Assembly: GCA_014360015.1 (NCBI GenBank)
Contig: JACIYJ010000004.1
Span: 257,520-321,519 of the forward strand
Direction: 5' to 3'
Source of the DNA: Candidatus Aminicenantes bacterium
GTDB taxonomy: Bacteria > Acidobacteriota > Aminicenantia > Aminicenantales > Saccharicenantaceae
Length of the DNA stretch: 64,000 bases
Notes under the pieces: generated by a model
The model's database searches: none
What the model was told of the DNA's origin: nothing
What the model saw: the letters and a program-made list of their open reading frames with translations, nothing else
Position numbers and translations under genes: made by a program
Part shown: piece after piece, positions 5,680 through 30,084 of the stretch
Numbering within the stretch: position 1 is the stretch's first letter
Layout: each line of letters begins with the position of its first letter

Positions 5680-8004
5680 ATGGTTTCAGAAAGAGTAAAC
5701 AAAATAGGAGCTTCTCCCACTCTTAAAATCTCAGCCAAAGCTAAAGCCATGAAGGCTGAGGGCATAGACGTGGTCGACCTCAGCGTGGGTGAACCTGATT
5801 TCCCGACGCCGGATAACGTCAAGGCAGCGGCGATTAAAGCCATCGAGCAAAATTTCACCAAGTACACCGAAAATGATGGAATTCCGGAGCTGAGAAAAGC
5901 GGTCTGCAAGAGGCTTAAAGAAGATTACGGGCTTGAATACAAACCCAACGAGGTGCTGATTTCGAGCGGGGCCAAAAACTCACTTTTCAATCTGATTCAG
6001 GCCATCGTCAACGAGGGAGATGAAGTGATCATCCCTGCCCCCTACTGGGTCACTTATCCGGAGTGCGTTAATCTGGCTAAGGGCAAGCCGGTTATAGTCG
6101 AGACAAGGGAAGAAGATGGCTTTCTGCTGACACCGGAGCAGCTGCGGGCGGCCATATCGCCATCGACGCGGGCCCTGGTGCTTAATAACCCGTGCAATCC
6201 AACTGGAGCTACATACACCAAGGAACAGCTGGAAGCTCTGGCTGAAGTGATTCGCAAAGAAGACATCTATGTGATTGCCGATGAGATTTACAGCCGCTTA
6301 GTCTATGATGGCTTTCAGTTTGTTAGTTTCGCTGCGCTGGGTGAAGATATCAAGAAAAAAACGATTATCATCAGTGGAGTTTCCAAAAGCTATTCGATGA
6401 CCGGGTGGAGAATCGGCTTTGCTGTCGGACCGGCTGAGATCATCAGTGCTATGTCCAAGATACAGAGCCATACTACTTCCAACGCCTGTTCCATCTCGCA
6501 GAAAGCCAGCGTCGAGGCTCTGGCCGGACCACAATATGAAGTTAATCGGATGGTGGCTGAATTCCAGCGCCGGCGGAATTATGTGCTGATGCGACTTCAG
6601 CAAATTCCAGGAATTTCCTGTTTTAAGCCCCAGGGAGCTTTCTACCTTTTCCCCAATGTGAGTTCATATTATGGCAAGGAAGCTGGTGGCATCCAGATTA
6701 GAAATTCTTACGGTCTGGCTTATTATCTGCTGAAAGAAGCCCGGGTGGCCGTCGTGCCAGGGGATGCGTTTGGAGCCGATAACTACATAAGGATATCTTA
6801 TGCCACCTCGATGGAGAACCTGGAAAAAGGCATGGATAGAATCGCTGAAGCCATGTCTAAGCTGAAGACAGCGAAGAAGGTTAAGAAGATTTACCTCCAG
6901 AATTACGTAACTAAGGTAAAAAAGTCAGTGCCGCTGGATGTAGTGAGTGAGGCTCGGATGCGCGAGGCCTTGGTGGCGGAGATGGAAAGCCATCTCAGCT
7001 ATGACAGCTATTACGAGTGGAATGCCAATATTAACGGGACAATTGTTCAGCTGAGAACTAACGTCGGGCATCTTTATGATTTCTGGGTGGAAAACTGGTA
7101 TCCAGGTCAGATCGAAGCTGGACTTGAACCGCACGCCGTGATTTATGCGGTGGATAATGTTCCGGGAAGAGAGCCGCGAGCTTATTACCATCCAGAGACT
7201 AGGACGGGAATTCTGGTCAACGCTGACAACTACGGACCGCTGAGGAAGCTGGCTCTCGGCATGGTGCTCGACTCGCAGGAGCATTTAGGAATCAATGCCG
7301 TGCGGGGCATGGCCGTTGCAGTGGATGGAAATGGGATGGTCCTGGTGGGCCAGCCAGGGACAAAGAAGACCGAGCTATTTTTCGAGCTCCTGAAGATGCC
7401 GCGGGTCCAGGCTCAGACTAACGAGATTGTGTTTGTGCGGTTTTCAGGGAATAAAGCGGTGGCCGATAGCGTTGAGCGGAAATTCTACATTCCAACAAAT
7501 ACTGTGGAACTTTTCGACAGATTGCCCAAGCTTTTTGACCACAGCAAGTGCGAGAATGTGGTGACCCGCCGTGAAGACTGCACTGACCGAACCTGTCCGC
7601 TTCAGGATGAATGCCGCTTAGATAAAGGCGCACCGTATTGTTTCAGAGCCTCGGCAGAAGCGCATGCCATGCTCGACCCGACCTGGATTGCCGGACCGCA
7701 AGGCTATGCCAGAAGAACCAACCTGAAATCTCTGGTGATACTGCGAAACGACCAGGTGTCGCCGGCGGTGGTGGAGTTGAGCAAAGAAGAAGCGCTGCGG
7801 ATTCTGGAAAGTGGAGAGCCTTCGGGTGCAGTAAAGTCAATCTCGGCTAAAGCTCAGCCTTTCTTCAACCCCCATCTTCTGGTGATGAATGAGGATAAGA
7901 TAGCGATTCAGCGGATGTTCTTCAGCCGCCTGCTGGACCAGGTGAAATGCTATATGGTAAACAGCGGCGTAGCCAGCCCCGACCAGCTCAAGAATCTTTT
8001 ATAG
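5680..8004 (+). CDS. Fusion protein: class I aspartate/aromatic aminotransferase (aa 1-395) joined to an HprK/PEP-carboxykinase-like P-loop domain with a Cys cluster
   Basis: The N-terminal half carries all AspAT class-Ib hallmarks (GEPDFPTP, SGAKNS, NNPCNPTG, SKSYSMTGWRIGF with the PLP lysine in SKS). After a Lys-rich linker, VAVDGNGMVLVGQPGTKKTELFFELLK aligns with the HprK/P core (LITGKSGVGKSETALELIK). A C-x10-C-x4-C-x5-C-x8-C cluster follows. Confidence 0.7.
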   Translation: MVSERVNKIGASPTLKISAKAKAMKAEGIDVVDLSVGEPDFPTPDNVKAAAIKAIEQNFTKYTENDGIPELRKAVCKRLKEDYGLEYKPNEVLISSGAKNSLFNLIQAIVNEGDEVIIPAPYWVTYPECVNLAKGKPVIVETREEDGFLLTPEQLRAAISPSTRALVLNNPCNPTGATYTKEQLEALAEVIRKEDIYVIADEIYSRLVYDGFQFVSFAALGEDIKKKTIIISGVSKSYSMTGWRIGFAVGPAEIISAMSKIQSHTTSNACSISQKASVEALAGPQYEVNRMVAEFQRRRNYVLMRLQQIPGISCFKPQGAFYLFPNVSSYYGKEAGGIQIRNSYGLAYYLLKEARVAVVPGDAFGADNYIRISYATSMENLEKGMDRIAEAMSKLKTAKKVKKIYLQNYVTKVKKSVPLDVVSEARMREALVAEMESHLSYDSYYEWNANINGTIVQLRTNVGHLYDFWVENWYPGQIEAGLEPHAVIYAVDNVPGREPRAYYHPETRTGILVNADNYGPLRKLALGMVLDSQEHLGINAVRGMAVAVDGNGMVLVGQPGTKKTELFFELLKMPRVQAQTNEIVFVRFSGNKAVADSVERKFYIPTNTVELFDRLPKLFDHSKCENVVTRREDCTDRTCPLQDECRLDKGAPYCFRASAEAHAMLDPTWIAGPQGYARRTNLKSLVILRNDQVSPAVVELSKEEALRILESGEPSGAVKSISAKAQPFFNPHLLVMNEDKIAIQRMFFSRLLDQVKCYMVNSGVASPDQLKNLL

Positions 8005-8359
8005 ATGTTAAAAAAACGGGGGACGTCCTACGCGTTTCCTGATTTTCAAGGGACGTACCGTAAAAACTGGTGACACCTTAAGTATTTCCCATTTTTAGGG
8101 ACACTTCTAATAACTGGTTTTTTAACTCAAAGATGGTCCTTAATTCATTGCGAAGAAAATTCCCGCTATTTGTCCTAAGCTCTTTAATTCTTCTTTAGCT
8201 TCCCAATTCTTCAGGCTACTCAGGCTGCACTTCATTTGCGCCAGATTGAAATTCGCTGATACACCCCCCCCTTCACTCACACTATGAATAGAAAATCTCC
8301 CACTCCAGTGCGCACGAGAACAAAACCTCGCCGATCAGAAAACGAGGAAGTCCTGCCTT

Positions 8360-9565
8360 TTAATAAATCGGCCACCGCCTGGTGATGAAACCATCGCGGA
8401 TTTCACGCCAGCTTCCCAACACTTCATCGGCTATTTTATAAACTTCATTTCTGACTTTGCTAACATCCACACCCCATATTTCCACGTTCAAAGCCTGAGG
8501 CTGGGTAATGGGTTCGTTTATCTGGCTGACCATGTAGACATAGACCTGCTTCGCCTCGGGTATTTTCTCCACGATACGGTCGGCAATAAGTTGGCTCATT
8601 ATGCTGTAAATCTTTCCCACATGACTGACCGGATTTTTTCCGGCCACAGCTTCCAGGCTCATCGGCCGGTAGGGAGTGATCAATCCGTTGGCGCGATTAC
8701 CACGGCCTACCTGACCGTCGTCTCCGGCTTCGGCGCTTGTCCCCGTAACCGTTAGGTAGACTGTCTCCGGCGTATCAGCATTATTTATGATAACTTCCAC
8801 CTTTCGCGATGTGTAGCGACGGACAAATTCATCCTGAAGGTAGCGGACGATTTCTTTTTTCATCTCTTCATAGGTCTGTCTATCTGGTACCATTGAAGCT
8901 ACAAAGGCTGCGGCCACTGTTAGGGTTATCGCTTCTCCTTTCCTGACCCCCATCACCTTAATATCTTCACCGAGCGCCGGAAACTTCTGCTTGCCCTGAA
9001 CGCTGTTTAAGAATCTCTCGGTTTCTAAAACCAGCTTTTCCAGTTCACTCAACGGCGCATAGCCGACTGCCAAAGAAGTATCATTGGCCCGCGGCGGCTG
9101 GTCGTTATCAGCGAAGATGCTGACCAGGTCTTCGCTTCCGGAGCGAATCAAAAGCTCAACTTCAAGATGTTCGGGCCGAAGATGGGGCACCTGCCGCATC
9201 ATCCAGTCTTTCAGTTTGGCTTCAAAGTGGCGCCTGTCTATCAATTTTTTCCCGCTGAATTCTTCTGTTGCCCGGCCTACAATGTACAGCTTAACTGGCT
9301 CAATTATCTTCCCTCCGCCAAACTGACACTTTGAACTGCCACCCACCAGAACAGCTTTATCCACATTATGGTGCAGGATTCTGCCGGTATGCTGACGATA
9401 GGTTTCCGAAAGAGCCACTGAAAGCTCTTCAGCCGCTCCATCGCAAAGAGAATCAGGATGGCCTTTTCCCTTGCGCTCTACGATTTCCACGGGCATTTCT
9501 TCCGCCAGTAAATCTCGTCCCGTTCTTACCTCAAAATAAAATCCAGACATTTCTACCTCCGACAT
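8360..9565 (-). CDS. Archaeal-type S-adenosylmethionine synthetase (methionine adenosyltransferase, MAT)
   Basis: VEIVERKGKGHPDSLCDGAAEELS matches the archaeal MAT signature (EIVERKGLGHPDSICDG). At about 400 aa it fits the archaeal form and does not resemble bacterial MetK. Confidence 0.8.
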   Translation of the reverse strand: MSEVEMSGFYFEVRTGRDLLAEEMPVEIVERKGKGHPDSLCDGAAEELSVALSETYRQHTGRILHHNVDKAVLVGGSSKCQFGGGKIIEPVKLYIVGRATEEFSGKKLIDRRHFEAKLKDWMMRQVPHLRPEHLEVELLIRSGSEDLVSIFADNDQPPRANDTSLAVGYAPLSELEKLVLETERFLNSVQGKQKFPALGEDIKVMGVRKGEAITLTVAAAFVASMVPDRQTYEEMKKEIVRYLQDEFVRRYTSRKVEVIINNADTPETVYLTVTGTSAEAGDDGQVGRGNRANGLITPYRPMSLEAVAGKNPVSHVGKIYSIMSQLIADRIVEKIPEAKQVYVYMVSQINEPITQPQALNVEIWGVDVSKVRNEVYKIADEVLGSWREIRDGFITRRWPIY

Positions 9566-9736
9566 TAAAATTTTTTGGGAACGGTTACCCGGCGGGTAGA
9601 ATCAAGCTGGCAATTGTAGGCCGTCTGACGTGGGTCTTTCCCACCATGGTCTCCGCTCCACAATTTCTGGCGAGGCGCCTCTCTTCTGCTCGAGAGGAGC
9701 GGGACCTGGTGGCGATGCTCGCTTTCGCCCCACTCC

Positions 9737-9852
9737 TCTCATCTTTCGCTCCGGCCGAAGCCGGAACTCAACGCTTTTGGCACCTTGCTCTCGCTCCGAG
9801 CAGGTTGCCGGGCTTCATCGGGCGCGTTAACCCTCTGCCTCTCTGGATGAGA
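9737..9852 (-). promoter_or_regulatory. SAM-I (S-box) riboswitch in the leader of the MAT gene
   Basis: The minus strand reads TCTCATCCAGAGAGGCAGAGGGTTAACGCGCCCGATGAAGCCCGGCAACC...GGTGCCAAAAGCG...AAAGATGAGAGG. This carries the conserved AGAGNGGCNGAGGGA, GCCCGATGAANCCCNGCAACC, GGTGC.AA and AGATGAG elements, and P1 pairs CTCATC with GATGAG. A roughly 170 nt expression platform separates it from the ATG. Confidence 0.8.
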
Positions 9853-10035
9853 GGATGAGAACGCCAGCGCCATATTTATTATAGCCAAATAAAAACAGCC
9901 AGACAATCCTGAATTTAATTTTTATAAAATTTTTTGTCAGAATTTTATATTTTCATTTTCAACAATTTTTACTGATTAAATGTTTTATAAAAAGTGTATA
10001 AAAAGAGGATAGAGGTTAACGTCCCTGAATATAGT

Positions 10036-11454
10036 TTAACGTCCGTCAATCAACACCTTCTTAACTCTTGTCCGGTAATCAAGCGGGTTACCACTGAAAA
10101 TGACTATGTCGGCGTCCTTACCTGGAGCGAGACTACCGATTCTATCAGCTACACCGATAACCTCAGCAGCGTTAATGGTGATGGCTCTAAGAGCTTCTTC
10201 CTCTGGCAGGCCGCCCCTCACCGCCAGCGCCGCAATCAAAGGCAGCTCCTCCAGCGCACCCAAGCCATACCGAACCTCACTCTGAAGAACAATTTTTACA
10301 CCTGCCTTATACAGCCGTGCCGCATTACTTGCTTCCACCTTTTCCGTCTCTGTTCTCTTCGGACCAATGCCCATCGGACCGACAATAACCGGTATCTTTC
10401 TTCTAGCAATTTCATCAGCCAGCATATAGCCTTCCACGCAACCTATAAAAACGGCCTTGAGTTTGAATTCGTCCACCAGCCTCAAAGCTCCACTTATATC
10501 ATCAATCCGGTAACATTCGATAAAAGCCGGCAGTTCTCCTCTGACCACCTTAGTTAGTGGCTCGAGCTTCAGGTCTTTTTTGGGAGCCTGAATATTAGAC
10601 ACCTCTTTTTTCGACTTCTTCGCTTCGGCCAGTTTTTTCTCGTAGGCGGCCCATTTCTCCCCATATTCTTTCGCTTCGAGGAGAGCCTGCCTGATGACAT
10701 AGACATTTCCCATCCTGGTGGATGGTAAGCGCCCCTTGCCGCCAAAGGCTTCTTTCGGCCCCTCTCCGATAGAAAACTTCAACCCAGCCGGTGATAGGAT
10801 GGTCATTTCTTCCGCAGTTTTGCCTTTAAGCTTTATGACCGCAGTCTGCCCGCCGATAACCGACCTTCGTCCCGGAGCGACCAGCGCAGCCGTTATCCCT
10901 GCCATCCTGGCCTGTTCAATTCTCTTATCGAACGGATAAAGCCCGTCAATAACCTGAAGCTGAGCCACATTTGGTTCGGACAGCTCTTCATTCTCGCTGC
11001 GCCCGGTTTCATCCACCAGTCCGAGTGTGGAATGAGCATCAATCATACCCGGCAGCACCCAGGCTTCCGGCTCATCAATAACTTCAGCCCCTTCCGGCAT
11101 AGCCAGGTCTTTCCCCACTGCTTTTACCTTCCCGGCTTCAACTATTACCATTCCCTTTTCAATCGCCGGACCGACCATGGTCAGAATCTTTCCGGCTCTG
11201 ATCACCAGCACCTTGCCTGAGCCGGGGGCCTGAATATTTACCTGGCCGGTAACTTCTGCTGCTCTAACTGGCGGAATCATATTTTTATCGATAATTACCC
11301 CGCAGGCCACCACAGCGATAAAACTCAGGAACACAGCCGAGGTCTTCCGCACCAGCCTTGATAGATATCTTATGCTTTTAAAAAAATTTTTCCTAACTCC
11401 CCTGATTATATCCATCTCAACCAGTACCTTCTGCCTTTTCATTTTTTCCATCAT
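10036..11454 (-). CDS. Membrane-anchored metal-dependent amidohydrolase (imidazolonepropionase-related family, COG1228-like)
   Basis: An N-terminal TM segment is followed by GMIDAHSTLGL and an amidohydrolase TIM-barrel pattern. It is a paralog of the adjacent gene. Confidence 0.75.
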   Translation of the reverse strand: MMEKMKRQKVLVEMDIIRGVRKNFFKSIRYLSRLVRKTSAVFLSFIAVVACGVIIDKNMIPPVRAAEVTGQVNIQAPGSGKVLVIRAGKILTMVGPAIEKGMVIVEAGKVKAVGKDLAMPEGAEVIDEPEAWVLPGMIDAHSTLGLVDETGRSENEELSEPNVAQLQVIDGLYPFDKRIEQARMAGITAALVAPGRRSVIGGQTAVIKLKGKTAEEMTILSPAGLKFSIGEGPKEAFGGKGRLPSTRMGNVYVIRQALLEAKEYGEKWAAYEKKLAEAKKSKKEVSNIQAPKKDLKLEPLTKVVRGELPAFIECYRIDDISGALRLVDEFKLKAVFIGCVEGYMLADEIARRKIPVIVGPMGIGPKRTETEKVEASNAARLYKAGVKIVLQSEVRYGLGALEELPLIAALAVRGGLPEEEALRAITINAAEVIGVADRIGSLAPGKDADIVIFSGNPLDYRTRVKKVLIDGR

Positions 11455-11466
11455 TCCTCCTGTTTT

Positions 11467-12825
11467 CTAATCAATTTTTATCGATGGGCTTTTATACACT
11501 TCCTGGCCGTCGATAAAAACCCGCAATGCTTCCTGTCTGATGTCAAACAGATCGCCGCTCCAGACAACCAGGTCGGCATCCTTTCCCTTTTCCAGGCTTC
11601 CCAGCCGGCTTTCCAGTCCGGCCAGCCTGGCCGGATTGATGGTAATGGCTTTAAGCGCCGCTTCAGGGTCCATTCCGTACTTCACAGCTATAGCCGCCTG
11701 GGTTCTCAGGAAAGGCTGCTGGATTACATCGGCATCGGTCATGATGCAGACCTCAACTCCGCGCTGGTACAGATAATCGGCCAGGTTGATGAGCCGGTTC
11801 TGGTCATCGTAGGTTATCATTCTCGGTCCGACTACCACTGTTACCTTGTTCCGGGCCAGCTCGTCAGCCACTTTATAAGCTTCTTCGGCATGGGCCAGGG
11901 AAAGCTGCTTGAAGCCAAACTCCTTAGCCAGACGAACCGCGGTCATGATGTCATCGGCCGAGTTTACATGGATGTGGACGGGAATTTTCCGCTCAAGCAC
12001 TAACAGCATGGCTTCTTTTTTAAGGTCGCGTGGCGGGGCACTGGCTGCCGGATTCTTTTTCTTTTCCCTCTCATAATTTTCAAGCGCTTTCTTGTATTCA
12101 GCCGCCTCCAGCATCGCCTGACGCACAAGATATGCCGTTCCCATCTTGGTCATGGGCATCTGACCTTTCTGAGCATAAGCACTTTTTCGGCCGAGAGCCA
12201 TTTTCATGTCAGCTGGAAAAAGGATGCACATTTCATCAACCGTTCGGCCTCGGAGCTTGAGCACCGCTGACTGTCCTCCGATGACATTGCCCGAGCCGGG
12301 TCTGACCACAGCCGCAGTTACCCCTTCAGCCACCGCATTCAAGAACTGATTCTTATCGGGACCGACGCCTTCGGGGTGGATGGAGTCTATAATCCGGAGC
12401 TGAGGCGTTACCGGATCAGTCATCTCATTATCCTCGGTCACTCCGCCGCTTGGACCCAACCCCAGGTGTGAATGAGCATCTATGAGCCCCGGAGTTATGA
12501 GGCAGCCTGAGACATCCATCACCTTAGCTCCTTCTGGAATTTTGAGACTTTCGCCTATGTCAGCAATTTTCCCGCTCCTGATGATTATTGTTCCCTGCTC
12601 ATAATTCTTACCAGTAGCAGTCAGAATTCTGGCGCCCGTTAGCACAATTATTTCTTCTTTCTGTGACCCAAAACTCATAGCGGGGAGAGAAGCGATAAAT
12701 AATAAAATTGATAAAAGAACGCTGATCTTAAAAAGCCTGTTTTTATCACTGATTTTCTTCCTTCTCCCTGGCTCTAAATTTTTGTCAGGTCGAATCACAA
12801 AAATCTTAAACAGATAATTCTTCAT
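11467..12825 (-). CDS. Membrane-anchored metal-dependent amidohydrolase, tandem paralog
   Basis: An N-terminal hydrophobic anchor is followed by PGLIDAHSHLGL. The protein is collinear with its neighbour (VIGGQ.AV.KL.G and GPRM/GPMG motifs). Confidence 0.75.
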   Translation of the reverse strand: MKNYLFKIFVIRPDKNLEPGRRKKISDKNRLFKISVLLSILLFIASLPAMSFGSQKEEIIVLTGARILTATGKNYEQGTIIIRSGKIADIGESLKIPEGAKVMDVSGCLITPGLIDAHSHLGLGPSGGVTEDNEMTDPVTPQLRIIDSIHPEGVGPDKNQFLNAVAEGVTAAVVRPGSGNVIGGQSAVLKLRGRTVDEMCILFPADMKMALGRKSAYAQKGQMPMTKMGTAYLVRQAMLEAAEYKKALENYEREKKKNPAASAPPRDLKKEAMLLVLERKIPVHIHVNSADDIMTAVRLAKEFGFKQLSLAHAEEAYKVADELARNKVTVVVGPRMITYDDQNRLINLADYLYQRGVEVCIMTDADVIQQPFLRTQAAIAVKYGMDPEAALKAITINPARLAGLESRLGSLEKGKDADLVVWSGDLFDIRQEALRVFIDGQEVYKSPSIKID

Positions 12826-14315: not shown

Positions 14316-15356
14316 ATGTCCCGTTATTTAATTACTGGGGGATCTGGTTATTTTGGTTCTGTGCTGGTTGAATATCTGCTTTCGCAGGGCCATGAATGTA
14401 TCAATGTGGATATTTGCCCACAAATTATCTCACATGAATCCTTAAAAACTTTTGAGATCGACATCAGAAATTATGAGGAACTCAAAAACATATTTGAATC
14501 ATGCGGTCCTTTTGATTCAGTCTTCCATCTGGCAGCCATGCTGGCCCACTCAGTTAAAGATAAAAAGGCTTTAATGGAAACAAACGTTCTCGGCACTGAA
14601 AATGTGGTCAAATTATGTGCAGAGTTTGGCATCAAAAACCTGGTTTTCACCTCCAGTAACTGCCTTTGGGCTAAACCATTCGGCCGTCCTGTAACCGAAG
14701 AAGATAAACCGGAACCCGTGGAAGTATATGGACTCTCAAAGATGAAGGCAGAGGAAGTTCTTTTTAACTACGCTGATAGAGTCAATTCTGCCATTCTGCG
14801 TGTGCCAACGATTATAAGCTCTGGTCGTCTCGGACTTCTGGCTATATTGTTTGAATTCATAGAAGAAAACAGAATTGTCTGGATGGTAGGGAAAGGGGAA
14901 AACCATTACCAGTTTATCTATGGACCCGACCTTGCCCAGGCTGCCCTTCTGGCTTCTACAATTAACCACACCCGAATTTATAATGTAGGGAGCGATCAGG
15001 TTAAGAGCTTAAAGGAGATTTATCGGTATGTAATAGACAGGGCCGGTTCAAAGTCTAAAATCAAGCACCTGCCCAGAGTGCCCGCCATTCTGGCTATGAA
15101 AATCGCCCACTTTTTAAAATTATCTCCACTCGGCCCCTACCACTATAAAATGATTGCCGAAAGTTTTGAATTTGATACCTCAAGAATAAAAAACGAATTG
15201 GGCTGGAAGCCAACAAAAACAAACGAAGAAATGCTTTTCGAAGCCTTTCTTTATTACAAAGAGCATAAAGATGAAATCCAAAAAAGGCAAATGGCTTCAG
15301 CCCATAGAAAGCCCGCAGAAATGGGAATAATTAAATTATTGAAATGGCTATCATAA
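14316..15356 (+). CDS. NAD-dependent sugar epimerase/dehydratase (extended SDR)
   Basis: An N-terminal Rossmann motif ITGGSGYFGS is followed by the YxxxK catalytic region (YGLSKMKAE). It is the first gene of the AT-rich island. Confidence 0.8.
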   Translation: MSRYLITGGSGYFGSVLVEYLLSQGHECINVDICPQIISHESLKTFEIDIRNYEELKNIFESCGPFDSVFHLAAMLAHSVKDKKALMETNVLGTENVVKLCAEFGIKNLVFTSSNCLWAKPFGRPVTEEDKPEPVEVYGLSKMKAEEVLFNYADRVNSAILRVPTIISSGRLGLLAILFEFIEENRIVWMVGKGENHYQFIYGPDLAQAALLASTINHTRIYNVGSDQVKSLKEIYRYVIDRAGSKSKIKHLPRVPAILAMKIAHFLKLSPLGPYHYKMIAESFEFDTSRIKNELGWKPTKTNEEMLFEAFLYYKEHKDEIQKRQMASAHRKPAEMGIIKLLKWLS

Positions 15357-17053
15357 GCAACAAAAAAACTATCTTTTTAGTATGTATCTTCTCTTTTACA
15401 ATAATTGTTTTCCTGTCTGCCTTTCTAAATTTACTATTGGCTGTATTCCCGGTAAACTATGAACTGGGACATGATGAAGCAGAGCACCTTCATGTAGCCT
15501 ATCTTCTGGAGCAAGGACAAAGACCCTACCTTGATTTTATCGAAAACCATCCAACACTTTTTAACCATTATCTTAAATGGCTCTGGAAATTTTTTAAATT
15601 GCACACGGTTAGAGAGTGGGCCTTCGCCGCCAGGCTAACGATTTTCTTCCATATTGTTTTAATGTTTCTGATATTCTTCATCTGGCTTTCAGGTTTGATA
15701 AAACCAAAACCCAATAAACTGTTTATCACATTCTGCTTTTTGTTAAGTTTTTCTTTTATAGGTTTTTATCACGGCCAGCTGGAATTTATGTGGCAGATCA
15801 GACCGGATTGGATTAGTTATGGGTATTCTTTTTTAGGTTTTTATCTCTTCTATCTCTATCTAAGACACAGGGTTCAAGATAAACACCGTTTACCGTCTGC
15901 GATTTATTTAGTGATTGGCGCAGCGTTTGTTGGGCTCGGAAACGCTATCCTGCCCAAAGGATTTACCATTATATTGGGGATAACTATGGGCCTTTTATTG
16001 CTAACGTTTACGAGGCAGATTAATAGAGACTTAATTTTTAGCAAAAAAGTCATAAATGGCTCGATTCTATTTGGAATATTGGTCTTTATTTTTTTCATTC
16101 TATTTGCGAATTTGGATTGCAAATTATCAAATGTCGACCTGATAAGCTGGGCAAAAGCTAACTTTCTCCTCAATTCTTCAAAACATCTGCCATTAACCAA
16201 TGCAGATAACAATCCGATAACTTCTTTAAGCGCTATTTTTTCGCTCAATTTGACCTTAATTCTCGTCCTTTCGACTTGGCTATTTGTAAAAATTTCATCT
16301 CGGCAAACAGATGAAGGCTCAAACACCGAGAAACAACTATTAGTCTTAAGCACATCTGTAATAATAATTAACGTCTCGATGACAGGATTTGGTAATGGAC
16401 TATCCTGGCCTCATTATTTTATTCCAAGTGTTTTTGCCGCTTTAACCATATACATAATTCTTATCCTTGACCTGATTAGTTTTAAGAGAGCTTTAAGATT
16501 AAAAAAAGCAAACTTCCCAGAAAAATATTTTTTTATACTTGCGATAGTCATAATATTCTCCGTATTGTCAAAGCAGCCCATGGGATTATACAGCGGAATT
16601 ATTAATCGCCAGGCAAACCTTTCCGACAGCCTGGTGATGAAAAATAATGATTACTTAAATGAGTCTATCCTGCCAAATAACTTCATCTATTTCACCCCTA
16701 AGCCAACAGAAATGCCCATAAGGGCCCGCCATGCCGGTTATTATTTTATGCTGGTAATTGACAAAAAAATCTGGAATGATTGTTATAATTTAGGTCTTGC
16801 CCCTGAGCCTGAATCTCACCTCAAGCATCTGTTTGATACAAATCCACCTGATATTTTAGCTTTTAACGGTATGGTTAAATTATATGAGTATGTTGTCTTT
16901 GCTTATGCTGTTCAGGAAGTTAATTTGACTTGGCTTTTTGATGAGGTAGATAAACGCTATGTATTAATGAAAAACAGACAAAGGCAGATTTTCGTAAGAG
17001 AGGATTTAACTGAGCTTATGACATCAAAAGGCTGGGAGAAGGTATCAAAATGA
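15344..17053 (+). CDS. Polytopic membrane protein, possible GT-C-type (ArnT/PMT-like) glycosyltransferase
   Basis: It has at least 12 predicted TM helices and a short N-terminal loop with acidic residues (HDEAEH). It is very AT-rich, and its start overlaps the epimerase stop. Confidence 0.45.
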   Translation: MAIISNKKTIFLVCIFSFTIIVFLSAFLNLLLAVFPVNYELGHDEAEHLHVAYLLEQGQRPYLDFIENHPTLFNHYLKWLWKFFKLHTVREWAFAARLTIFFHIVLMFLIFFIWLSGLIKPKPNKLFITFCFLLSFSFIGFYHGQLEFMWQIRPDWISYGYSFLGFYLFYLYLRHRVQDKHRLPSAIYLVIGAAFVGLGNAILPKGFTIILGITMGLLLLTFTRQINRDLIFSKKVINGSILFGILVFIFFILFANLDCKLSNVDLISWAKANFLLNSSKHLPLTNADNNPITSLSAIFSLNLTLILVLSTWLFVKISSRQTDEGSNTEKQLLVLSTSVIIINVSMTGFGNGLSWPHYFIPSVFAALTIYIILILDLISFKRALRLKKANFPEKYFFILAIVIIFSVLSKQPMGLYSGIINRQANLSDSLVMKNNDYLNESILPNNFIYFTPKPTEMPIRARHAGYYFMLVIDKKIWNDCYNLGLAPEPESHLKHLFDTNPPDILAFNGMVKLYEYVVFAYAVQEVNLTWLFDEVDKRYVLMKNRQRQIFVREDLTELMTSKGWEKVSK

Positions 17054-29913: not shown

Positions 29914-29987
29914 CGCGCCTGGAGGGATTCGAACCCCCGACCCGCTGCTTAGAAGGCAGCTGCTCTATCCTGCTGAGCTACAGGCGC
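29914..29987 (-). tRNA. tRNA-Arg (anticodon TCT)
   Basis: A manual cloverleaf fits: acceptor GCGCCTG/CAGGCGC, D-arm GCTC/GAGC, anticodon stem GCTGC/GCAGC with loop CTTCTAA, T-arm GGGGG-TTCGAAT-CCCTC, discriminator G. No CCA is encoded. Confidence 0.9.
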
Positions 29988-30009: not shown

Positions 30010-30084
30010 TCGGGGAGATCGGATTTGAACCGACGACCTCCTGCTCCCAAGGCAGGCGCGCTAACCAGGCTGCGCCACTCCCCG
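30010..30084 (-). tRNA. tRNA-Pro (anticodon TGG)
   Basis: A manual cloverleaf fits: acceptor CGGGGAG/CTCCCCG (C1:G72, typical of bacterial tRNA-Pro), anticodon stem CCTGC/GCAGG with loop CTTGGGA (G37), T-loop TTCAAAT, discriminator A. It sits 22 nt upstream of tRNA-Arg on the same strand. Confidence 0.9.

Follow-up and report, generated by a model that had tools for sequence, protein, structure and literature searches.

The DNA analyzed in this study is a 64,000-nt stretch (referred to as the window) from a Candidatus Aminicenantes bacterium (assembly GCA_014360015.1, contig JACIYJ010000004.1, positions 257,520 to 321,519), which carries on its minus strand a gene for an archaeal-type methionine adenosyltransferase (MAT), also called S-adenosylmethionine (SAM) synthetase, preceded by a SAM-I riboswitch. 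This unit has its own promoter, a sigma-70-type element at 9906-9878 (-) with a -35 hexamer TTGTCT (9906-9901), a 17-nt spacer and a -10 hexamer TATAAT (9883-9878), which matches the consensus at 10 of 12 positions. Another 20 Aminicenantes leaders and leader L028 have TATAAT with identical spacing to the aptamer, and transcription probably starts at approximately 9871. The aptamer lies in the 5' leader position at 9853-9736 (-), on the same strand as the MAT gene, whose start codon is at 9550. A terminator scan identified an intrinsic terminator after the gene at 8347-8316 (-), consisting of a CCUCG..CGAGG hairpin followed by UUUUGUUCUC with the U-tail UUUUGUU.

The MAT open reading frame (ORF) was listed as 8360-9565 (-). 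However, the start that is supported by agreement of the homologues and by a GGAGG Shine-Dalgarno (SD) sequence 5 nt upstream (9560-9556) is the ATG at 9550-9548, which is kept in all Aminicenantes relatives. The gene therefore spans 9550-8360 (-), ends with a TAA stop codon at 8362-8360 and encodes a product of 396 amino acids. The sole Pfam family matched by this product is PF01941 (482 bits versus a cutoff of 27, profile positions 11-392 of 395), as expected from the sequence-only reading of this DNA, which had described the enzyme as archaeal-type and unlike bacterial MetK. The product also passed the NCBIfam methionine adenosyltransferase subfamily model NF003366 (471.8 versus a cutoff of 435) and contains EIVERKGKGHPDSLCDG as well as the GHPD catalytic signature (KGKGHPDSLCDG). 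The bacterial MetK motifs GAGDQG and GGGAFSGKD were found in none of the six frames of the window. The relatives with solved structures are six archaeal enzymes, all PDB entries for S-adenosylmethionine synthase (chains of 4l4q, 6s81, 7p83, 7p82, 4hpv and 4ws9), with E-values of 2e-103 to 2e-94; the matches to 4l4q, 6s81, 7p83 and 4hpv (2e-103 to 2.6e-95) covered residues 17-386. On these grounds the ORF is an ordinary PF01941 member with predicted SAM synthetase activity.

An Rfam scan over the whole window gave three above-threshold matches, two tRNAs and RF00162, the SAM-I family. The RF00162 match covered the complete model (1-108 of 108) at 9853-9736 (-) with 62.0 bits, as compared with a gathering score of 44.4 bits, and an E-value of 5.6e-12, in agreement with the S-box aptamer that had been proposed here. 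The P1 strands CTCTCATC/GATGAGAG and the strings GCCCGATGAAGCCCGGCAACC and GGTGCCAA quoted in that proposal were located; the quoted P2 block was also present, except that it ends in GGGT (AGAGAGGCAGAGGGT) and not in GGGA. The proposed distance of about 170 nt between aptamer and gene corresponds to 171 nt to an upstream in-frame ATG, or 186 nt to the ATG at 9550. When 12 aptamers, drawn from both phyla that carry the riboswitch, were folded de novo into a consensus with RNAalifold, P1, P2 (P2a/b), P3 and P4 were recovered. Compensatory changes on both sides of the helix were found in 10 of the 35 pairs among these 12 relatives, all of them in distal P3 and in P4, and the aptamer core was invariant among relatives. 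All 31 riboswitch-bearing loci that were scanned scored above the Rfam threshold, the relatives with 50-64.5 bits. By these sequence criteria the element is a full-length, canonical SAM-I aptamer with a P1-P4 four-way junction, an ordinary RF00162 member that is under selection and is predicted to bind SAM.

The host belongs to what used to be a candidate phylum (Aminicenantes/OP8; Ca. Saccharicenans), and the bacterial association of this aptamer with an archaeal-type MAT, which had also been pointed out from the sequence, extends well beyond the window. Candidatus Saccharicenans and Aminicenantes metagenome-assembled genomes (MAGs) encode the nearest proteins (72-86% identity), followed by Fervidibacterota, Armatimonadota and bacterium HR17 (54-68% identity). 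Among 22 Aminicenantes loci, taken from one genome per species, RF00162 was detected upstream of MAT in all 21 that had enough upstream DNA (58.5-64.5 bits); the remaining locus, L018, has only 197 nt of it. RF00162 was also detected in seven loci from five Fervidibacterota/Armatimonadota proteins with identity down to 54% (50-58 bits). Every relative from these groups that was checked and had enough upstream DNA carried the same leader as well as the aptamer. Furthermore, a metagenome collection was scanned by exact pattern for the first two core strings of the expression platform (GAUGAGAGGAGUGGGG and CCCGCUCCUCUC), and the platform core was found at 39 loci, with an archaeal-type MAT starting 190-210 nt downstream in all 35 that had downstream DNA. 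No riboswitch was found at four archaeal-type MAT loci outside the clade. Two of these are of Aquificae type, a third is labelled Planctomycetes, and the fourth lies among archaeal genes.

A neighbour-joining tree of 28 sequences grouped the riboswitch-bearing MATs in one clade (bootstrap 95/100, or 100 when a subgroup of 422-aa proteins was left out), and the named archaeal sequences and the Aquificae group fell outside it. The window MAT is 47-54% identical to the archaeal sequences and 51% identical to the Aquificae one. From these data, the riboswitch-MAT unit arose once. As judged from these sequences, it is either old or has moved between phyla as a unit, and is not a recent acquisition in the lineage of the window. 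The horizontal acquisition of the enzyme suggested by the sequence-only reading is thus only inferred: the family is archaeal-type, but the unit is old and forms one clade across two phyla.

Some loci found in the course of this survey carry unexpected labels or neighbours. A MAT 74% identical to that of the window is encoded in a MAG labelled Methanothermobacter tenebrarum (L076; GCA_049721245.1, JBNASA010000023.1, 2148 bp, gene 261-1397). No riboswitch precedes this gene, the first ~18 residues are missing, and another ORF lies ~30 nt ahead of it; the contig may be a piece of bacterial DNA that was mis-binned or rearranged, or the gene may truly have been transferred into an archaeon. Four genome records labelled 'uncultured Eubacteriales bacterium' (L002, L005, L009 and L019) have an Aminicenantes-type MAT (76-80% identity) together with an Aminicenantes-type leader, and their taxonomic labels look wrong. 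At one Aquificae-type locus (L075, 717-1892 (-)), a gene with a Csx1/CARF domain lies divergently beside the riboswitch-less archaeal-type MAT.

Most of the leader is composed of strands with alternative partners. From its 5' end the RNA runs from Z and the P1 5' strand through the aptamer core to B, C, Z' and D, and then through a spacer to E and the SD. Strand Z (GGCGCUGGCGUUCUCAUC, 9871-9854 (-)) is the 5' end of the predicted transcript, and strand B (GAUGAGAGGAGUGGGG, 9743-9728 (-)) is the P1 3' strand with its tail. In the loop between B and C, a hairpin termed Py (GCGA-GCA-UCGC, 9722-9712 (-)) was predicted in the SAM-free folds, with a 3' strand that overlaps outer C; its counterparts vary by clade (GCGG/CCGC, AAGGC/GCCCUU or AAGG/CCUU). 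Strand C (CCACCAGGUCCCGCUCCUCUC, 9712-9692 (-)) is followed by strand Z' (GAAGAGAGGCGCCUCGCCA, 9686-9668 (-)) and by strand D (GGAGCGGAGACCAUGGUGGG, 9659-9640 (-)), which is purine-rich and SD-like; its core, GGAGCGG, looks like an SD decoy. A variable spacer at 9639-9597 (-), whose sequence is not conserved (mean composition in Aminicenantes 60% A+U, 23% C and 17% G), leads to strand E at 9601-9578 (-), made up of CCCGCCGGGUAACCGUUCC (9596-9578) and the 5' flank UUCUA. When the 22 Aminicenantes leaders were aligned, ~105 nt after the aptamer were nearly invariant, including some loop bases, and were followed by ~60 unalignable nt, a conserved box of 21 nt, a variable A+U-rich stretch, GGAGG and the ATG. 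The core strings GAUGAGAGGAGUGGGG, CCCGCUCCUCUC and GGAGCGG also occur in the Fervidibacterota relatives.

Pairing between these strands was examined in a non-redundant set of 51 leaders. Since the outer helices shift by one position between clades, covariation was tabulated from duplexes predicted for each sequence, with the conserved cores as anchors; when the platform was aligned with MAFFT and folded with RNAalifold, the invariant B:C helix alone was recovered, with zero compensatory pairs. The complementarity of GAGAGGAG and CTCCTCTC noted from the sequence is real in the window leader, and the predicted pairing of the P1 3' strand with CUCCUCUC corresponds to helix B:C, which has 14 invariant pairs in 27 diverse leaders and a predicted energy of -26 to -31.5 kcal/mol. 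The alternative partner that had been assigned to CUCCUCUC, a CCUCUC/GAGAGG hairpin, was not borne out: the conserved partner is the distal strand D (GGAGCGGAGACC..GGUGGG, 9659-9640), and the local hairpin UCUC/GAGA is found only in Aminicenantes and is absent from the Fervidibacterota relatives. Helix C:D has -29 to -40 kcal/mol, and the outer part of C covaries with D. The interior of the platform also differs, being a three-way junction in Aminicenantes and a single long hairpin in Fervidibacterota.

Helix D:E was predicted in 51 of 51 leaders with -20 to -33 kcal/mol (-30.1 kcal/mol and z -4.7 in the window). The outer half of D reads GGUGGG, UUGUGAGGG or GAAGGG depending on the clade, and its partners in C and E both change along with it, so that D positions 12-18 vary between clades with matching changes on both sides. 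At D position 14 the pair is G:C in 27 sequence types and A:U in 5, in C:D and D:E alike; position 16 forms U:A (19) or G:C (12) with C and U:G (14) or G:C (14) with E; and position 18 is G:C (27), C:G (3) or U:G (2) in both helices. Helix Z:Z', formed by the 5'-terminal bases of the transcript and the segment that separates C from D, had -22 to -32 kcal/mol in the 51 leaders, with a mean z of -2.6 versus shuffled sequences, and is present in the unconstrained minimum free energy (MFE) fold of the window. Its sequence is clade-specific and its pairing is kept: UGGCG/CGCCA, GGCG/CGCC and UUCUC/GAGAG in Aminicenantes, GGCG/CGCC and GGCGCUCCC/GGGAGCGCC in Fervidibacterota, AGGCGCUGUCG/UGGCAGCGCCU in L028 and GAGGCGCCCCU/AGGGGCGCUUC in L070. 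Four alternative helices, with covariation in their variable parts, were shown by these predictions.

Folding of the leader under constraints suggested two mutually exclusive states. When P1 and C:D were enforced to represent the SAM-bound state of the window leader, P1 extended to ~20 pairs through Z and the tail of B, in which Z pairs with the B tail and the next bases (GGGGCG..AGCG), and C:D closed a three-way junction with hairpins UCUC/GAGA and GGCG/CGCC. Strand Z' is folded locally within this junction, as the 3' strand of UCUC/GAGA (9695-9680) and as GGCG-CCU-CGCC (9679-9669). In the same constrained fold, UUCUACCCGCCGG (9601-9589, the 5' half of E with its flank) pairs with UCGGAGGUAGAA (9562-9551, the ribosome-binding site) in an 11-bp helix, and a duplex of this E:SD type has -13.6 kcal/mol in the window. 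When Z:Z', B:C and D:E were enforced to represent the SAM-free state, the energy of the window leader was -144.2 kcal/mol, as compared with -134.3 kcal/mol for the P1-locked state and -145.8 kcal/mol for the unconstrained minimum, which is essentially the SAM-free fold. The SAM-free state was favoured in 44 of the 49 leaders, by a mean of 7.8 kcal/mol, a gap that we estimate to be of the size expected to be offset by ligand binding, and in ~15 leaders its energy equalled that of the unconstrained MFE. An OFF riboswitch is expected to be arranged in this way, with the ligand-free fold as its ground state and the other fold trapped when the ligand binds during transcription. The mean unpaired probability of E was 0.37 with SAM and 0.15 without it.

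According to the model built on these folds, the promoter starts a leader of ~320 nt, whose first 135 nt hold the SAM-I aptamer and in which nearly every base from the aptamer to the ribosome-binding site lies in a strand that can pair with either of two others. Binding of SAM would lock and extend P1 by pairing of its 5' strand and Z with B and its tail, so that C would pair with D in a long helix and Z' would fold into small hairpins within it. The pyrimidine-rich strand E would then be left free to pair with the SD region and block translation initiation. In the absence of SAM, B would invade C, the freed 5' end Z would pair with Z', and D would pair with E. We infer from this modelling that SAM represses. 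The leader is probably, though by no means certainly, a two-state feedback OFF switch for SAM synthesis that is most likely read out through occlusion of the ribosome-binding site by E.

Translational readout was favoured by several features of the leader. The strands alternate between pyrimidine and purine (P1 5' strand, B, C, D, E and SD), and the SD, as the last purine strand, is the most likely partner for E. Strand E is more exposed in the SAM-bound state, and in the SAM-bound fold of the window its 5' half covers the SD. Clear anti-SD strings lie within or next to E in Fervidibacterota relatives (AAGCCCCUCC with GGAGGUGGCUU, and CCCCUC with GAGGGG). The spacing between E and the ATG is nearly constant within clades, with 26-32 nt in Aminicenantes. 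Finally, the terminator scan, which covered 8100-10100, found no terminator in 9550-9736, consistent with the earlier observation that the hairpin proposed in the leader lacks an obvious U-tract; the only strong site was after the gene, at 8347-8326, and helix C:D has no U-run behind it in the window and most relatives. The normal terminator after the MAT gene indicates that the organism uses ordinary U-tract terminators, unlike the leader.

Several results weigh against this interpretation. Modelled SD accessibility was alike in the two states (0.24 versus 0.27 overall), both when the P1 3' strand was kept or left out and when each state was imposed by hard constraints, and the ensemble probability of SD:E in the SAM-bound state was only 0.03 in the window. 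The complementarity between E and SD was no better than base composition predicts (shuffles of E, mean z +0.2), and a leader's own free region paired with its SD no better than did the free regions of other leaders from the same clade (p 0.56 and 0.14). Location of the best SD partner inside E proved too lax a criterion to be informative, with a chance expectation of ~0.8. At the level of the helices, B:C and inner C:D never vary and rest on conservation and energy, not on covariation; the covariation tables have no independent structural alignment behind them; and all folds represent nearest-neighbour rules at 37°C.

Some of these results would be accommodated by a Rho-dependent readout of the same two-state leader, in which SAM, by holding D in C:D, would leave the G-poor ~75 nt between D and the start codon, with C-rich E among them, single-stranded for the loading of Rho, and in which D:E would close this stretch into a helix and loop when SAM is absent. 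The leader without a terminator, the unchanged modelled accessibility of the SD, the lack of specific co-evolution of SD and anti-SD and the greater exposure of E with SAM all fit this alternative, as does the composition from the end of D to the SD, which averages 33% C and 18% G versus 25% C and 28% G in the ORF and reaches ~50% C in this region of one Fervidibacterota subgroup. However, in Aminicenantes the C-richness is limited to the 22-nt E box, with a spacer of 60% A+U and 23% C and an E-to-SD segment of 77% A+U, which would make a weak rut site; E is necessarily C-rich in order to pair with purine-rich D; and a fairly constant spacing of 26-32 nt between E and the ATG in Aminicenantes would be needless for a loading site. 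A Rho-dependent readout is rather unlikely, although it is the main rival of occlusion. Translational occlusion was ranked first and Rho second, and both may coexist, with Rho acting on the untranslated, G-poor leader as a possible second layer. That C:D might instead be an intrinsic terminator without a U-tract, giving classical S-box termination and antitermination, is suggested by its strength as a G+C-rich helix (-29 to -40 kcal/mol), by its formation only when P1 is locked, as for an S-box terminator with B:C as the antiterminator, and by a few relatives with a U-containing tail after the following hairpin (for example, UUGUUGU in L023). This is very improbable, given that no U-run stands behind C:D in the window and most relatives, that the MAT gene of the same organism ends in a normal hairpin with UUUUGUU, and that the conserved D:E swap and the E box would be left without a function.

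The near invariance of ~105 nt, including some loop bases, might also indicate that the platform, which extends from the aptamer towards the start codon, senses another metabolite, a tRNA or a protein in a two-input switch, for which the tRNA-sensing platform of Xanthomonas provides a precedent of a SAM-I platform with a second input (PMC7270179). The dual pairing of Z', C and D already explains this invariance, however, and the three-way junction of Aminicenantes and the single hairpin of Fervidibacterota share no common pocket. An Rfam scan of 9500-9760 at E-values up to 10 gave only chance matches to microRNA hairpin models and hence no family that would represent a tandem second aptamer, and a second sensor is considered highly unlikely. 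Even less credible is an aptamer relic or constitutive leader whose conservation reflects mRNA stability or another non-regulatory role, since the aptamer is above the Rfam threshold in 31 of 31 riboswitch-bearing loci, P3 and P4 show compensatory changes, the core is invariant, and the alternative helices exclude one another and depend on the P1 3' strand. A more far-reaching extension of the two-state model, which we consider improbable as a whole, is that the leader and MAT form a mobile or very ancient cassette of two unrelated phyla and that the platform is a terminator-less 'register-shift' device, in which five or six alternating purine and pyrimidine strands would each move by one partner upon SAM binding and which might also sense a second signal, as in Xanthomonas.

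Other features of the leaders were noted during this analysis. In Aminicenantes leaders a second, nearly identical copy of the P1 5' strand stands in front of it (UCUCAUCC UCUCAUCC; 9860-9846 (-) in the window), and the upstream copy of UCUCAUCC is an extension of P1 or part of Z:Z'; Fervidibacterota carry CUCCCACC instead. In a 422-aa Armatimonadota/Fervidibacterota subgroup (L070/L071, 2030-2501), the distance from the end of the aptamer to the start codon is 326 nt versus 186 nt in the window, with an insertion of ~60 nt between C and D and two extra AUGCCCC repeats that could pair with outer D. In some Fervidibacterota leaders, such as L023 (~2905-2945) and the F1-type leaders, a G+C-rich hairpin with a U-containing tail (for example, GGGGGCAG..CUGUGCCCCC UUGUUGU) directly follows D; it is terminator-like but inconsistent between relatives. 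An ORF that starts at an AUG inside the P1 3' strand has 46 codons in the window and 18 to >100 codons in relatives, and a leader peptide was rejected because the length of this ORF is not conserved. A mimic of a tRNA acceptor, consisting of CGCCACCA in C and a T-box-like UGG in D, was dropped because it is not conserved in Fervidibacterota.

Comparison with known regulatory leaders indicated which parts of the system are familiar. Classical S-box leaders, such as those of Bacillus subtilis metK and met genes, end in a hairpin with a U-tract. The leader in the window shares with them the aptamer family, the logic of SAM feedback on a SAM/methionine gene and the first competing pair, in which the P1 3' strand is opposed by a downstream pyrimidine strand equivalent to the antiterminator, but it has no terminator, has two extra swaps (D:E and Z:Z') and controls a PF01941 enzyme instead of bacterial MetK. 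The thiamine pyrophosphate (TPP) riboswitch of Escherichia coli thiM acts on translation with an anti-anti-SD strand, and in Enterococcus the S_MK box (SAM-III) of metK exerts translational control over a SAM synthetase. As in these two, the ligand would set the choice of a pyrimidine anti-SD strand between an SD-like decoy and the real SD; they have one or two swaps in ~50-100 nt, however, as compared with four swapped helices over ~320 nt here, and occlusion of the SD comes out weak when the window itself is modelled. The Mg2+ leader of Salmonella mgtA and the flavin mononucleotide (FMN) riboswitch of E. coli ribB have been shown experimentally to be Rho-dependent. They resemble the leader in the window in lacking a terminator and in having a ligand state that exposes or hides a C-rich single strand, but Rho is only a possibility here, and the rut-like composition is weak in Aminicenantes.

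The SAM-I riboswitch of the Xanthomonas campestris met operon works chiefly at the level of translation, by means of a terminator-less anti-SD/SD platform to which uncharged initiator tRNA also binds and which governs genes for methionine synthesis (PMC7270179). The leader in the window likewise has a SAM-I aptamer without a terminator, with putative translational control, but no tRNA-like or tRNA-binding feature conserved across clades was found in leaders of the window type. The S-boxes of Geobacter were described with a hairpin and U-tract, like the classical ones, and are located upstream of metIC and metX; an archaeal-type SAM synthetase is present as a second isozyme in Geobacter and Desulfuromonas, and no S-box was reported for it (PMC545781). 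Both those genomes and the window have a PF01941-type enzyme in a bacterium, but in the window the riboswitch is directly on the archaeal-type gene. In the literature searched, no description was found of a SAM-I riboswitch paired with an archaeal-type MAT, of a riboswitch in Aminicenantes, or of a terminator-less, whole-leader, four-helix swap conserved across two phyla. The aptamer and the enzyme family are known, and the new element is the expression platform with its unusually long chain of alternative helices.

The surroundings of the unit are those of an ordinary bacterial chromosome, with genes for RNase PH, a PAS-HD protein, flotillin and a sigma-54 activator in the wider neighbourhood and a G+C content of 45.6% in the window. 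Two tandem genes of the amidohydrolase family (10036-11454 (-) and 11467-12825 (-)) lie on the same strand directly upstream of the riboswitch promoter. Downstream and convergent with MAT is a 774-aa ORF (5680-8004 (+)), in which residues 30-388 form a class I/II aminotransferase domain and the C-terminal ~380 residues had no Pfam match. Farther away, a 569-aa ORF (15344-17053 (+)) that matched no Pfam family at an E-value of 1e-5 lies between genes for an NAD-dependent epimerase and an amine-oxidase-like flavoprotein, and the two tRNA genes are adjacent, at 29914-29987 (-) and 30010-30084 (-) (70 and 67 bits).

These results point to a regulatory capture, in which a bacterial metabolite-sensing RNA has long been retained on an enzyme of the archaeal branch, and offer a clean case of RNA control of a non-orthologous enzyme. 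Pipelines that expect a terminator or an obvious anti-SD sequence beside the aptamer would mis-describe leaders of this type during annotation. With two partners predicted for almost every nucleotide of its ~320 nt, the leader may serve as a test bed for signal relay, and it could show how ligand binding is relayed over a long distance without a terminator.

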